Shown here piece by piece: positions 1-4,853 of a stretch of DNA of 4,853 bases. Numbering within the stretch: the stretch's first letter is position 1; each line of letters begins with the position of its first letter. The stretch lies in IMG/VR virus record IMGVR_UViG_2706794665_000004, one strand, 5' to 3'. The DNA comes from a virus (Duplodnaviria > Heunggongvirae > Uroviricota > Caudoviricetes). The notes below the pieces were generated by a model. It did not search any database and was not told where the DNA came from. It saw nothing but the letters and a program-made list of their open reading frames with translations. The position numbers and the translations under genes are program-made.

Positions 1-152
1 GACAAAGTCATCGGGCATTATCTGAACATAAAACACTATCAATAAGTTGGAGTCATTACCAAAAAAACCGCCGAAACGGGTTAAGTGCGGGTGCGTTGAG
101 GATGCCTGACACATCAAAGGTGGCGGGAGATTACTCTCCCGCCTGGTCACTC

Positions 153-308
153 TTACTCTCTAGATTCGTAGTCTACGAAAACAGCGACCTCCGTCTGGCC
201 GATTCGGATTCGTACCTCGCAGAGGTCTTTCCTCGTTACCAGTGCCGTCACAATGACGGTTAAACAGATGACGATCAGGGCGATTAACATCGCCTTTTGC
301 TGCTTCAT
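153..308 (-). CDS. hok: Hok/Gef-family type I toxin, 51 aa (MKQQKAMLIALIVICLTVIVTALVTRKDLCEVRIRIGQTEVAVFVDYESRE)
   Basis: Internal ATG at 306-308 of the 70-aa ORF, preceded by AAGGAG about 9 nt upstream. Single transmembrane helix, conserved RKDLCE and GQTEVA motifs, TAA stop at 153-155. From memory the first ~35 residues match E. coli HokD/HokC and the C-terminus diverges; not verified by search. Confidence 0.85.
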   Translation of the reverse strand: MKQQKAMLIALIVICLTVIVTALVTRKDLCEVRIRIGQTEVAVFVDYESRE

Positions 309-365
309 AGCCTGCTTCTCCTTGCCTTTCGGCACGTAAGAGGCTAACCTACATTTGTGAGACAT
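153..365 (-). CDS. mok: Mok-like leader ORF, in-frame 19-codon N-terminal extension of hok (MSHKCRLASYVPKGKEKQA + Hok)
   Basis: ATG at 363-365 opens the same frame as hok. The 70-aa product resembles, from memory, chromosomal MokC (basic leader ...KVKEKRAM fused in frame to Hok). Hok/sok biology: mok translation is needed for hok translation. Only a weak GAGG lies upstream. Confidence 0.45.
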   Translation of the reverse strand: MSHKCRLASYVPKGKEKQAMKQQKAMLIALIVICLTVIVTALVTRKDLCEVRIRIGQTEVAVFVDYESRE

Positions 366-415
366 AGATTGGGCCTCAGATTAATGTTAAGCGTCTTGCA
401 GGACGCGTAATGTTA
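357..415 (+). ncRNA. Putative Sok-like antisense RNA complementary to the mok start region (position inferred by analogy, ends not defined)
   Basis: By analogy with hok/sok loci the antitoxin RNA lies antisense across the mok start. Candidate promoter on + strand by eye: TTGCCT 322-327, 17-bp spacer, TAACCT 345-350. Small hairpin GCGTC/GACGC at 391-406, but no clear U-tract terminator. Confidence 0.2.
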
Positions 416-646
416 ACTGGGGCTTTTCTCTGTCTGCCTTACAGTGACATACCCGAGGCAGACAGCCTCAAGCACCCGCAGCAATCTTACCGACACCGAT
501 AAGAAAACGCTATTTTTTATTGCCAGCACCATCTATCCAGGCTAGTTTATCTGCGTCAGAACGGCGCAATGCGCTCGCCTGAGATACGTTTACTTGCCAT
601 GGTAACAACAGGTAACGGCAATTGCTGTTTCTGTTTTGTTTCCTTC

Positions 647-684
647 AAAAACCCCGGACCATCAATCCGGGGTTTTTGTTTGTT
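647..684. terminator. Bidirectional Rho-independent terminator
   Basis: Perfect 7-bp GC-rich stem CCCCGGA (652-658) / TCCGGGG (666-672) with 7-nt loop, flanked by A5 (647-651) and TTTTTGTTTGTT (673-684). This gives a U-tract on both strands. It sits about 80 nt downstream of the DUF551-like gene stop. Confidence 0.75.
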
Positions 685-762
685 AACCCCAACGGCAAAT
701 CGAATACACCACCAGCGCCACCGCCATCGCAATTCCTACCGTGGTGAATGCCTCAGGCCAGG

Positions 763-1128
763 TCATTGATTCACCTCCTGCGGTGGTTCCGGTAGCGGCA
801 TCCAGTGAGTTGAGCTCTCTACTTCAACGCCGTCTTTGTCCACAAAAGCCATCTTATTCCCGCCACGAGTGGGGCAAAAAACCTTATCCCAGGAACCGGG
901 GAATACATTCCCGAGATCATCGAGAAGAATCACATCGCAATATTCAGCAGGAACTGCATCACTACAGCTTATCCAGCCAGCCGGAGCTACCGGAGAGTTG
1001 CCAGCCTTACGCATGGCCATTTCCACGATTTCAACCATATCTCCTGGTGGAATTTTACAAAGTTGCCCAATACATTTCTGCTGCCTGGCATATTCGAGAA
1101 TGTGCTCCAGTTTGGTTCGATTAATCAT
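763..1128 (-). CDS. DUF551-like phage protein, 121 aa
   Basis: ATG at 1126-1128 with GGGAGA Shine-Dalgarno upstream; its start overlaps the TAA stop of the upstream gene (TAATG). C-terminal motif ...GWIS...THWMPLPEPP is as I recall for DUF551 family phage proteins. TGA stop at 763-765. Confidence 0.75.
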   Translation of the reverse strand: MINRTKLEHILEYARQQKCIGQLCKIPPGDMVEIVEMAMRKAGNSPVAPAGWISCSDAVPAEYCDVILLDDLGNVFPGSWDKVFCPTRGGNKMAFVDKDGVEVESSTHWMPLPEPPQEVNQ

Positions 1129-1793
1129 TATTTATCTCCCTTAAGCATGGCAGCGCGGCAGGCGTTCCAGCCATCAACATAATCAAACGTATTACTATCG
1201 TTTGGCCCGATTTCATCCGGCACTATCGGCTCTGGTTGGATAGTGACGTTGGCAAAGGCAGCACGCAAACCGGTTTTAATTTCTTCGATTTCATCAGAGC
1301 CAAGCGATGAATCTGACAGTGCGTGATGGAATGCGTAAGCCATGTCGTCGTTTACTGCAACCGGCACTGCCGGCGCTGCGTAAAGCGGTGTTATATCTGC
1401 CCGAAAATCACATGCTTTATGCAGTCGTACCCAACACTCAACTTCCGCTTTGTCAAAATATATAGCAGTGAACGTATTAGATTCCTGGTCAACTTGAGTA
1501 AACGTCACCTTCCACGCTACAGCTACGGCTTTCCATCCATCAGGTTGTCGCATTCGCGGGGCAGCATAAAGCTCATGCATTCCATCAGGCAGCGAGTGAC
1601 CCACATACTCACCGAACCCGTCAATACACATGCCCCCATCTTCAACAATGCATTCCGCTACAGGCTCTGCTTCCAGTGATGCCAGAGCGATAAGCGCCAG
1701 TTCACGAATTTCACCGCCGTCTATATCGTCAATATCATCGCGGCCAGAAATGTTAGCCAGCCATTGCAGTCGCTCTTTGGTAATAGTGGTCAT
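1128..1793 (-). CDS. Hypothetical acidic phage protein, 221 aa
   Basis: ATG at 1791-1793 overlaps the HNH gene stop (ATGA), with GAAGGGG Shine-Dalgarno upstream. By hand count about 39 Asp/Glu versus 17 Lys/Arg. Internal repeat of an L-Y-A-A-P motif (HELYAAPRM and ITPLYAAPAV). No family recognised. Confidence 0.75.
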   Translation of the reverse strand: MTTITKERLQWLANISGRDDIDDIDGGEIRELALIALASLEAEPVAECIVEDGGMCIDGFGEYVGHSLPDGMHELYAAPRMRQPDGWKAVAVAWKVTFTQVDQESNTFTAIYFDKAEVECWVRLHKACDFRADITPLYAAPAVPVAVNDDMAYAFHHALSDSSLGSDEIEEIKTGLRAAFANVTIQPEPIVPDEIGPNDSNTFDYVDGWNACRAAMLKGDK

Positions 1794-2155
1794 GCCGTAG
1801 CCCCTTCTTGATATTTTTCAAACCAGAACACAACCGGGTCAGATTTCATTTCAACCAATCCCATACGAACCAGCGCTTTGCCTTTCCCGGACGCAAGGAA
1901 TTCACGACGACCATCACTGATAATTCGTCGATAATCTTCCAGGCTACTGCAATGCTTGTGCAGATTGCATGGGTGGCATGCTGGTACCATGTTGGATATA
2001 TCGTCACGTTCCTGGTGAAGCATATTTCCATCAAAACGAATGACCGGTTTTACATGGTCTGCATGCCACTTTTCGCCAAGTTCGCAGCCGCAATAAGCGC
2101 AGCGACCACCGAACTTCATGCGCAGTTCTGCACGTTGTTTTTTCGTCAGTGCCAT
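1790..2155 (-). CDS. HNH (His-Me finger) endonuclease, 121 aa
   Basis: Motifs CAYCGC (CxxC), WHADHVKP (catalytic His), NMVPACHPCNLHK (second CxxC plus Asn/His), the classic zinc-binding HNH arrangement. Start placed at the internal ATG 2153-2155, which has AAGGAAAG upstream; the 30-codon extension to 2245 has no motif support. Confidence 0.88.
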   Translation of the reverse strand: MALTKKQRAELRMKFGGRCAYCGCELGEKWHADHVKPVIRFDGNMLHQERDDISNMVPACHPCNLHKHCSSLEDYRRIISDGRREFLASGKGKALVRMGLVEMKSDPVVFWFEKYQEGATA

Positions 2156-2156
2156 A

Positions 2157-2375
2157 TCAGCTTTCCTTATACGGATTAATTTTATTGTGCAGTGTGTTGA
2201 ATGACGCCCATACCACGTCGTTATACAATTCAATAACTGGCTCAATTATTTTTCCGATTATCCAGACAAAAATTAGCGGGGATATCGGTGTCATCAACAC
2301 GATAAACAGAATGAGAAACAGGAATTCTGTTGTTCTACTCTTTCGCGGATATTTTTTTCTAAATAATGTAACCAT
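2157..2375 (-). CDS. Possible small membrane protein, 72 aa (MVTLFRKKYPRKSRTTEFLFLILFIVLMTPISPLIFVWIIGKII...)
   Basis: ORF with a basic N-terminus followed by one strongly hydrophobic transmembrane-like segment. Its TGA stop (2157-2159) lies 1 nt from the HNH ATG, consistent with translational coupling. Against it: AT-rich with rare codons, weak Shine-Dalgarno partly buried in a hairpin; could be noncoding. Confidence 0.3.
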   Translation of the reverse strand: MVTLFRKKYPRKSRTTEFLFLILFIVLMTPISPLIFVWIIGKIIEPVIELYNDVVWASFNTLHNKINPYKES

Positions 2376-2380
2376 TCATT

Positions 2381-2398
2381 ACCGCCCTTTCGGGCGGT
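2381..2398 (-). terminator. GC-rich hairpin with GAAA tetraloop (ACCGCCC-GAAA-GGGCGGT on minus strand), possible partial terminator or attenuator between replication genes and the HNH cassette
   Basis: Perfect 7-bp stem and 4-nt loop seen directly in sequence. The downstream minus-strand sequence AAUGAAUGGUUACAUUAUUU is only moderately U-rich, so function as an intrinsic terminator is uncertain. Confidence 0.3.
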
Positions 2399-2467
2399 CT
2401 CCTGATGATTTGAGGGTGCAGAAATCCCTCCGGTTAAGGATTAAATTTTTAACAGTGCTAAATTTAA

Positions 2468-2881
2468 TTATTCAGTTCTGGATTTTGTCGCCCTGCGTAT
2501 CCGCGCTTTCGCGTTACGCTCAATCTGTATCAGCTTTTCTATATTTCTCCGCCTTTCCTGTTCCTCCTGGCGCAATAGCCTTACATCATCTGCCAGTCTG
2601 GTTTCTCTTTTTGCCACAGAGAGCATCCAGTCAAACGGCTCCACAACCGCACCGCAGATTTTACAGCGGACCTGACGCTCTTTTTCGTCAACCCGGACAG
2701 AGGCGTGATGGCAATATGGTCTTTCCGATGGTTCATAAAGAAAATTAACCTGATTACGTGGGTCATCCTCTTTTACCGGAAATAAAACGATATTGCTTAA
2801 CTCATCTTGGTGATGCTGCCAACTTACTGATTTAGTGTATGATGGTGTTTTTGAGGTGCGAAGCCTGATAGCTAATTTCAT
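2468..2881 (-). CDS. Hypothetical phage protein with putative zinc-ribbon (C-H-H ... CxxC) and basic coiled-coil C-terminus, 137 aa
   Basis: ATG at 2879-2881 immediately follows the TGA of the upstream gene (TGAATG), with AGGAGG 11 nt upstream. Motif PYCHHASVRVDEKERQVRCKICG. TAA stop at 2468-2470. Confidence 0.7.
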   Translation of the reverse strand: MKLAIRLRTSKTPSYTKSVSWQHHQDELSNIVLFPVKEDDPRNQVNFLYEPSERPYCHHASVRVDEKERQVRCKICGAVVEPFDWMLSVAKRETRLADDVRLLRQEEQERRRNIEKLIQIERNAKARIRRATKSRTE

Positions 2882-3304
2882 TCACAGTATCGCCTCCTGA
2901 AAATTACCCTGATAGAAAGCCAGTACACGCTGCATAGCTTCGCTCTTCCGGCACTCGCGACAGATTATATTCAGGCGCCTGTCGTAGCGGCGTATTTCTC
3001 CGTCAGGTAATGACCAGATAAGGTCCGGATCAACAACAACCGGTTTCCTCACCTTTACTCTCGAGAGTTTTTTGCGGGCGCTTTGCCAGTCCTTGCGAGC
3101 CTGTTCAGACGGGAATAAGCCGTAGCCAGAATTATATACATCACCACTTGCGACCAGTTCTATGCATAAGCGACCGACAGACGCACGACTGATACCTGTT
3201 TCATCTGACAACTGCCGAATCGTGACCCGACCGTCCTGATGCACGAGTTCCACAATTCGCGTCTTCAGTTCTTCCCGCTGTTCGGGAGTAAAAGGTTTCG
3301 CCAT
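2882..3304 (-). CDS. Winged-helix/HTH DNA-binding protein, 140 aa
   Basis: ATG at 3302-3304 with strong AGGAGG Shine-Dalgarno (3309-3314 on + strand). HTH-like segment TIRQLSDETGISRASVGRLCIELVASG. Located directly downstream of the DnaC-like gene. Confidence 0.78.
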   Translation of the reverse strand: MAKPFTPEQREELKTRIVELVHQDGRVTIRQLSDETGISRASVGRLCIELVASGDVYNSGYGLFPSEQARKDWQSARKKLSRVKVRKPVVVDPDLIWSLPDGEIRRYDRRLNIICRECRKSEAMQRVLAFYQGNFQEAIL

Positions 3305-3318
3305 AAATCCTCCTGAAA

Positions 3319-4065
3319 CTACTTAACAACCCTCGAATGGCTAACATTCGGACGCCAGCTCTCCCAGTTAAAATTCACCCAGCGCCCGCCGTTCATGACC
3401 ATGCGATCCATCACCCGCTCGCCGAGCAATGTTTTCATCACCTCATAGTTCAGGTTTGTCAGCATCCCCACGCTGCGCATCGACGCTGTCCGGCGATCAA
3501 CAATCTGGTGCAGCACCACCTGCTCGTTTTTCGTCTCGCGCTGAATGCCAATTTCATCAAGAACCAGCAGATCCACTTCGCACAGCTCCCGCAAAAATTT
3601 TTCGCCTGACTGCCCGTCGTCATAGCTGGCGTGCAGGGCGCTCATAACATCAGCCACGGTAACCACAATCACTGTCTGACCGTCTTTCAGCAGGCGATTC
3701 CCGATAGCTGCCGCTAAGTGATTCTTCCCGGTACCAGGTTTTCCGCTGAACGCAAAATTTGTACACCCGGTCATCAGTTCATCGGCGATGGATTTCGCCT
3801 GGCTTAACGCGTATCGCTGGCCGTCGTTCTGCACCTGGTAATTCGCAAACGAGCATTTACGGTGCAACGGCTGGATGCCTGAGCGATTCAGAATTTTTTC
3901 CACCCGCAACTGGCGATTCAGGCGGTTGATCTCCTCGCTACGTTTCTGGCCTTCAGCAAGTTGCCACTCGCGCCACTCCGCTACCGTTCTGAATGGGGCG
4001 GTTACATGTGGCGGGGTCAGTCGGCGGATGCGTTCCAGAACGCCGCCTGTCGCAATATTTTTCAT
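3319..4065 (-). CDS. ydaV: Prophage DnaC-family AAA+ helicase loader / replication protein (YdaV-like), 248 aa
   Basis: Walker A motif GKPGTGKNHL, Walker B-like DLLVLDEIG, overall DnaC/IstB-like architecture. N-terminus MKNIATGGVLERIRRL resembles Rac prophage YdaV as I recall it; symbol is by similarity, not verified. ATG 4063-4065, TAG stop 3319-3321. Confidence 0.9.
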   Translation of the reverse strand: MKNIATGGVLERIRRLTPPHVTAPFRTVAEWREWQLAEGQKRSEEINRLNRQLRVEKILNRSGIQPLHRKCSFANYQVQNDGQRYALSQAKSIADELMTGCTNFAFSGKPGTGKNHLAAAIGNRLLKDGQTVIVVTVADVMSALHASYDDGQSGEKFLRELCEVDLLVLDEIGIQRETKNEQVVLHQIVDRRTASMRSVGMLTNLNYEVMKTLLGERVMDRMVMNGGRWVNFNWESWRPNVSHSRVVK

Positions 4066-4071
4066 GGTCCG

Positions 4072-4748
4072 TTACCCCCTGAAGCCTGGCGGGATCGCAC
4101 TGTCCGGCAACGAGACGGTGTTAACCTGTCGGAGCAACGTCTCAGGCCGAACACCTTTCGGCGCGAACAGGCCCTGGTATTCATTGGCGATGCTGTGTCG
4201 AATCACCTGCTCAGGTGTAAAACCCTGCTGACGGAATTTTTCCAGTTCCCGTATCGCCCCGTTAGCGCCCTGCTCCGTTCGAATCGGTTTTCGCAATGCC
4301 TGTCTGAACCGGACCCACTCATGCCAGAGTGTTTCCGGCAACCAATCGGGCAGCTCAATAGCCTCCGGCTCGAATTTTTTAGACGCTCGTTTTTGGCGAG
4401 GGGGAGATCAGTATTTAGATCTTCCTCTTCCTCTTCCTCTGGTAACGCTTTTTGATCCGTTTGTGTAACGCTGGCAGCGTTACCTTTTCGTTTCAGTTCG
4501 CGTATTTTTGTTACTCGCTCGTTTGTAACCGCCCGTTTTTTTTAGAGCTTTTTCCGTTATGACGTTCAAAGTTAGGTAGAGAAAGCCCTCCGTCATTTTC
4601 GACCAGCCATCCAACCTGAATTAACGCATCAGCAAAACCAGACATAAAAGTGATGCGATCTATTGCACTTTTTGTAACGCCGCGAGCGTTACAATCTGCA
4701 TTACCGTCTATCATTTGTTGATCCGCCCATGCCCAGAAGCGAATAACC
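4072..4748 (-). pseudogene. Disrupted ydaU-like (DUF1376-type) replication-initiator gene: 5' end truncated by IS insertion and split over three reading frames
   Basis: Three consecutive stop-free minus-strand frames tile the region: 4748-4514, about 4541-4380, and 4407-4075. The switches fall at an A8 run (4536-4543) and an A6 run (4375-4380) on the coding strand. Position immediately upstream of the DnaC-like gene matches the ydaU-ydaV arrangement in Rac. The 87-aa ORF's apparent GTG start (4772-4774) lies inside the IS terminal repeat. Confidence 0.6.
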
Positions 4749-4853
4749 TGAGGTAGCCTGAGTTTAACGGACACTCCTTCCTGAAATAGAATGGCATCAG
4801 AAGGAGCTAATAATGAGCAGAAAAACCCAACGTTACTCTAAAGAGTTCAAAGC
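4749..4853 (+). mobile_element. Left end of an IS3-family insertion sequence (IS600-like), continuing beyond the window
   Basis: Terminus begins TGAGGTAGCCTGAG at 4749 (IS3-family ends start with TG). AAGGAG at 4801-4806 and orfA ATG at 4813, about 64 nt from the end, as typical for the family. Assignment to IS600 is from memory of its end sequence and OrfA N-terminus. Confidence 0.8.
4813..4853 (+). CDS. IS3-family transposase OrfA, N-terminal fragment (MSRKTQRYSKEFK...), runs off window
   Basis: ATG at 4813 with AAGGAG 6 nt upstream. N-terminal sequence has the basic, KEFK-containing start typical of IS3-family OrfA HTH proteins. Confidence 0.8.
   Translation, partial: MSRKTQRYSKEFK

Follow-up and report, generated by a model that had tools for sequence, protein, structure and literature searches.

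The window analysed here is the whole of a 4853-bp short-read draft contig (CWSW01000217.1, assembly GCA_001252695.1). Read on the minus strand, its right-hand part carries the remains of a prophage replication-initiator gene followed by an intact helicase-loader gene, and the initiator gene breaks off where the end of an insertion sequence begins (Table 1). At the opposite end of the contig, window 1-60 consists of the final 60 bp of IS1 (right end, ...AAGTTGGAGTCATTACC). An IS thus closes the contig on either side, IS1 on the left and IS600 on the right, as is expected when short-read assembly breaks at repeats. An ORF of the Hok/Gef family of type I toxins (153-365, minus strand, 70 aa, Pfam E = 1.7e-21) adjoins the IS1 end; related genomes have it annotated with a length of 51 or 70 aa.

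Several chromosomes match the left-hand part of the window (1-2859) at 100% identity, among them CP019689, that of Shigella sonnei 75/02 (PMC5447701). In the same paper the S. sonnei drafts of Holt et al. 2012 appear under accessions of a similar kind (CX series). On the grounds of this identity and of the accession series, it is likely that the contig comes from S. sonnei.

Table 1. Coordinates of the features around the broken initiator gene (positions in the window; strand left empty where none applies)
Feature	Position	Strand	Remarks
ydaV/DnaC-like helicase-loader gene, intact	3319..4065	-	NCBIfam PRK12377, 1-248/248, E = 8e-154; Pfam IstB_IS21, Bac_DnaA
Remnant of 262-aa replication-initiator gene (phrog_2509)	4072..4748	-	nt 105 (codon 35/36) to stop; pseudogene with three lesions
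89-aa ORF, initiator C-terminal domain in native frame (YdaU-like)	4072..4341	-	100% identical to intact C-terminus
10-bp deletion (AGGGGGATTT)	4398..4399		between 7-bp direct repeats AGGGGGA; second frameshift, codons about 151-154
19-bp palindrome GTAACGCTGGCAGCGTTAC	4465..4483		inside initiator gene; one of three copies in intact loci
87-aa chimeric ORF, GTG start	4511..4774	-	8 IS600 codons + junction codon, native V36-K105, 8-residue out-of-frame tail
T8 run (A8 in gene orientation)	4536..4543		six in intact genes; +2 frameshift after K105
Second 19-bp palindrome GTAACGCCGCGAGCGTTAC	4674..4692		inside initiator gene
Target-site duplication, one copy	4746..4748		ACC on + strand, GGT in gene orientation
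IS600 left end (IRL side)	4749..4853	+	105/105 identity; cut off by contig end

The inserted element and its boundary

The initial annotation had read the terminal sequence as the end of an IS3-family element starting at 4749, and this was borne out, as all 105 bp of window 4749-4853 were identical over their full length to IS600 in 3,210 E. coli records (E = 4e-47), at sites labelled in RefSeq as 'IS3-like element IS600 family transposase'. The terminal inverted repeat starts at 4749, and the ATG of orfA (MSRKTQRYSKEFK) lies at 4813 on the plus strand, opening a 100-aa OrfA of which the first 13 codons only are in the window. The transposase genes point away from the gene remnant. A promoter scan of the IS600 end gave a single promoter-like match (TTAACG-17-TAGAAT, 4764-4792), which faces inward, and no promoter-like site facing outward on the minus strand.

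The full element could be described from a related locus (L003), where it is 1264 bp long and matches annotated IS600 copies from S. sonnei plasmids at 99.9-100% identity. Its orfA spans nt 65-367 and its orfB is read in the -1 frame from nt 304, with an A7G slippery site (AAAAAAAG) at nt 316-323 in the overlap of the two. Pfam assigned OrfA (100 aa) to HTH_Tnp_1 and OrfB to rve, and the termini have the form TG...CA (TGAGGTAGCC... and ...GTACACCTCA) as imperfect inverted repeats matching at 19/27 positions. The element is IS600, of the IS3 family, and every IS3-family feature that could be tested for was present. With the IS600 of Shigella and enteroinvasive E. coli it shares the orfA/orfB arrangement, the -1 frameshift site, the DDE domain (rve), the TG...CA ends and, in related loci, a 3-bp duplication, with no difference of note, the window itself holding the first 105 bp only. 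Five insertion sequences have expanded in every Shigella species, and IS600, which is one of them, gives rise to pseudogenes (PMC7373316).

The breakpoint was located by megablast of window 4000-4853 against 5,426 complete E. coli genomes and by a three-way alignment of the window with two intact reference loci, L001 (FDAARGOS_944) and L002 (COL60J). The gene region was present in 681 of the 5,426 genomes, and every match ended at window 4749. The junction between IS600 and the gene was found in none of them (best coverage 88%), and an exact search for it in the GTDB contigs, one genome per species, gave no match, the outcome to be expected if GTDB counts Shigella under E. coli. Both intact loci were colinear with the window up to 4749 and unrelated to it afterwards; a continuous alignment of intact homologues over this position was looked for, and none crosses it. 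The divergence means that nt 1-104 of the gene (34 codons plus 2 nt) are absent on the window side. The T at 4749 matches the target by chance, and the true boundary, fixed by the TG...CA ends of the element together with the 3-bp duplication, lies between 4748 and 4749.

As the window is the entire contig, the other end of IS600 cannot be recovered from its own sequence; the far side is not readable there, and the evidence on it comes from related loci. The assembly collection has an identical 87-aa chimeric protein in 481 blocks, of which 14 have contigs longer than 1 Mb, and the junction-bearing loci that we compared represent eight distinct places (L003-L010). Six of these (L003, L005, L006, L007, L009, L010) hold a complete IS600 of 1263/1264 bp with a GGT duplication, and the flanks read ...AAGGT-IS600-GGTTATT... 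where the intact gene has ...AAGGTTATT... The window shows one copy of GGT and the six related loci show both, which supplied the second IS end and the target-site duplication that had been sought beyond the window. On the far side of IS600 in these loci follow the 5' gene fragment, the leader, ydaT, cro and a cI-like repressor gene, and a 41-aa ORF (MASNW...GKV+EVYWQ) consists of native residues 1-36 and five IS-encoded residues. The suggestion that the native N-terminus and promoter were displaced or lost thus holds as to displacement, since they lie beyond a full IS600 in the six loci; they have not been deleted there.

At the remaining two places the far end of IS600 adjoins another IS transposase gene (L004) or a Rac-type ydaV (L008). 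Both far ends are rearranged, indicating that the IS600 copy has also served as a rearrangement point. A similar recombination or rearrangement junction in the source strain, with the N-terminus lost from the locus and not displaced by 1.26 kb, is suggested by these two of eight places, and L008 belongs to a draft series of similar accession style and matches the ydaV region of the window without indels. We nevertheless regard it as unlikely for this strain, since six of the eight places, several chromosome-scale assemblies among them, show a simple insertion with duplication, and since window 2860-4853 is 100% identical to L003 as well as to L004, with 7 mismatches to L008. If the insertion is simple, the right end of IS600 would be joined to ...GCATTAGGGAAGGT / ...CCGCATTAGGGAAGGT.

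The junction could also be thought to have arisen in assembly, from a chimeric contig end, the gene itself having no IS, given that the window is a short-read draft contig with repeats at its ends and has a second suspicious join inside (2809-2859, see below). The same junction and 87-aa ORF do, however, recur in the 481 blocks, including independent chromosome-scale assemblies with the complete IS and its duplication. We rejected an artefact at the junction as extremely improbable, those independent assemblies having effectively refuted it.

Lesions in the initiator gene and their order

The remnant of the gene was defined by alignment to the intact genes of the reference loci (L001:3073-3861 and L002:3073-3861; 789 bp, 262 aa). 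It had been proposed that the minus-strand reading frame runs straight into the IS, which would encode the GTG start and the first 8-9 codons, and both coordinates and count were exact: the IS part (4749-4774) comprises 26 nt, or 8 codons and 2 nt, and the native frame resumes at V36. The stop of the 87-aa ORF at 4511 is not the natural one, because it results from the +2 insertion in the T run. For the 10-bp deletion, slippage is the best explanation. The 89-aa ORF downstream is no longer joined to any start of the initiator gene, and both ORFs would be by-products with no expected function. A hexamer repeat (CTCTTC, window 4421-4440) encodes an acidic EEEEEE linker of the initiator, and its length varies among assemblies with the same junction (+18 bp in L005, +24 bp in L010), a variation that may reflect true instability of the repeat in a pseudogene or else noise of the assemblies.

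Our preferred reading, to which we give a probability of roughly 0.93, is that IS600 (1264 bp) inserted at codon 35/36 of the phrog_2509 initiator gene of a lambdoid prophage. By this transposition the first 34 codons, the ribosome-binding site, one of the three palindromes and the entire early operon upstream (cI, cro, ydaT) would have been parted from the rest of the gene and from ydaV. The remnant has, in addition, the +2 homopolymer frameshift and the 10-bp slippage deletion, which leaves a dead gene, and the contig, from a Shigella sonnei-like genome, stops 105 bp into the element because IS600 is a multi-copy repeat. The initiator gene is dead, its loss of function being inferred from its sequence, and the prophage is clearly defective, as had been supposed. 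That the replication module was inactivated by IS transposition is plausible; the effect of the IS cannot be separated from that of the two further frameshift lesions, and this part of the claim is therefore not demonstrable.

The T8 run and the 10-bp deletion occurred at all eight junction-bearing places and in neither of the intact loci. Among the eight loci and the 5,426 complete E. coli genomes, none was found that carried one or two of these lesions but not all three, and the lesion-bearing segment had no full-coverage match above 94.4% in the latter. There is somewhat less than an even chance that the gene was already a pseudogene, through the T-run frameshift, the deletion or both, when IS600 landed, and that the element is a passenger. 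Since both small lesions are found wherever the junction is, they cannot be younger than the spread of the allele, and the surrounding prophage, with many copies of IS1, IS600, IS110-family and other IS3-family elements, a truncated integrase and a shortened ydaT, fits a long-standing decay. Nevertheless, no complete E. coli genome among the 5,426 had the small lesions without the IS, and the reverse order is equally compatible with the data.

The 87-aa ORF might be supposed to be a functional expressed protein, a truncated form of the presumed DNA-binding N-terminal domain that could, for example, interfere with the replication of related phages. A GGAAGGA lies just upstream of the IS-borne GTG, hundreds of assemblies have the ORF among their called genes, and two of three palindromic candidate binding sites are still in the locus. 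Against this, the IS end has no outward promoter-like site, the Shine-Dalgarno-like sequence abuts the GTG at a spacing of about 0-4 nt, the ORF has lost residues 1-35 of the domain and closes with a tail read out of frame, and its wide occurrence is explained by clonal descent. As a real gene it was rejected as very improbable, on account of the promoter, the spacing, the missing residues and the tail. Even more far-fetched is the specific version in which the fragment (residues 36-105) would be expressed, bind the palindromes and act as a dominant-negative or exclusion factor against incoming phages of the same initiator specificity; such a role, if true, would explain the retention of the ORF across hundreds of Shigella assemblies.

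The initiator family and the replication module

The intact 262-aa protein matched phrog_2509 over its full length (1-262 to 1-277/277, E = 1.2e-89), a family whose label, 'replication initiation protein', rests on annotation. The 87-aa ORF covers positions 34-102 of this family (E = 9e-37) and the 89-aa ORF positions 193-277; the C-terminal domain also matches phrog_6451 and phrog_678 (PHROG). The gene had been called ydaU-like, which is right for the C-terminal half, where over 124 aa the intact initiator has 81% identity with Rac-type YdaU (285 aa, DUF1376; BLASTP E = 2e-73), and not for the part adjoining the IS, which belongs to phrog_2509 and has no DUF1376. The N-terminal residues, about 135, had no BLASTP similarity to Rac-type YdaU, and neither the intact 262-aa homologue nor either fragment matched Pfam DUF1376 (PF07120) at E <= 0.01, the domain being present in the Rac-type YdaU of L008, L014 and L020. 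The initiator is a domain-swapped mosaic, judging from these alignments, a pattern common in lambdoid replication genes. In COL60J the intact gene is annotated as 'phage replication initiator YdaU family protein'.

Scanned against Pfam and NCBIfam, neither the intact protein nor its fragments could be assigned to a family, save for a far sub-threshold match to DnaT: the last 19 residues of the initiator (window 4072-4128) weakly match the DnaT C-terminus (NCBIfam PRK02854, E = 0.002-0.006, far below the cut-off). In E. coli, dnaT lies just upstream of dnaC, and the position of the initiator gene upstream of a dnaC-like ydaV parallels this order.

In the intact loci (L001, L002) the genes follow each other as ydaT, initiator, ydaV and DUF977. 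Next in this replication operon comes ydaV, 6 bp downstream of the broken initiator. Polarity probably silences it, as IS600 stands between ydaV and the early promoter region and has no outward promoter-like site. Downstream of ydaV, the DUF977 protein (window 2882-3304, minus strand) hits PHROG 142, 'Ren-like exclusion protein' (E = 2.7e-44), along with several HTH families of the winged-helix type.

Two known systems can be compared with this module. The Rac YdaU-YdaV module of E. coli K-12 has the same gene order and resembles ours in the C-terminal 124 aa and in ydaV over its full length; it differs in that Rac YdaU belongs to DUF1376 and phrog_6451, whereas the initiator here is a phrog_2509 protein whose N-terminal part has no BLASTP similarity to YdaU. 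In phage lambda the initiator gene O precedes the helicase-loader gene P in the early rightward operon, and the origin lies inside O. The present locus is similar in the order of initiator and loader, in the acidic mid-gene linker, in the repeated dyad-symmetric 19-bp sites in or near the initiator gene and in a weak match to phrog_678 ('replication initiation O-like'). By analogy with lambda O, the C-terminal domain presumably contacts the loader.

The 19-bp palindromes have the form GTAACGC-N5-GCGTTAC and occur in the intact loci as three exact copies about 200 bp apart, against a chance expectation of about 0.01. The third copy precedes the native ATG by 14 bp (L001:3875-3893) and in related genomes is found beyond IS600 (L003:8624-8642), so that the insertion parts it from the other two. 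They are candidate initiator, origin or operator sites. As a candidate origin they differ from the four clustered iterons of lambda.

The internal join and the setting of the insertion

The second join of the contig lies at 2809-2859, where the first 51 bp of IS1 replace exactly 51 bp of the native sequence seen in L001 and L003. To its left the window matches, at 100% identity, the prophage that S. sonnei genomes carry at the Rac (ttcA) site, in which a full IS1 with a 10-bp duplication occupies the join point and IS600 follows 139 bp further; to its right it is 100% identical to the mod-adjacent prophage bearing the IS600 junction. The 221-aa ORF likewise led to the prophage at ttcA. The two prophage loci are 1.1 Mb apart in one 4.82-Mb assembly (L004 for the mod-adjacent one, L012 for the Rac-site one), and the 137-aa ORF that spans the join (2468-2881), partly encoded by IS1, was found in this contig only in the whole assembly collection. 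The join most likely stems from a misjoin of short reads or from faulty gap closure, with a real IS1-linked recombination as the less likely cause. In PMC7373316 the short reads of S. sonnei that were screened averaged 59 bp, and this draft may belong to that data set. The IS600 finding is unaffected by the join, as it lies wholly in the right-hand block, and it recurs in complete genomes.

We conclude that this is a real and exactly placed IS600 insertion in a triply broken gene of an IS-ridden defective prophage. The case is ordinary Shigella genome decay, already known in kind, and it resembles the IS-driven decay described by Hawkey et al. 2020 (PMC7373316) in having an expanded IS within a gene, IS copies as rearrangement points and contigs that end in an IS; prophages have 0 occurrences in the main text of that paper. 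For annotation it means that the 87-aa and 89-aa ORFs are fragments of one pseudogene and that the 137-aa ORF is likewise a fragment. The IS600 site is a shared, lineage-marking insertion in S. sonnei-like genomes and a point of IS-mediated rearrangement, and the contig illustrates how short-read assemblies end in IS copies and possibly misjoin at them.

The IS600 that follows IS1 by 139 bp in the Rac-site prophage (L012, about 8079-8217) is again a left end, in the DUF977-proximal homologous region and in the same orientation as that of the window; both prophages have been struck repeatedly by the same types of IS.
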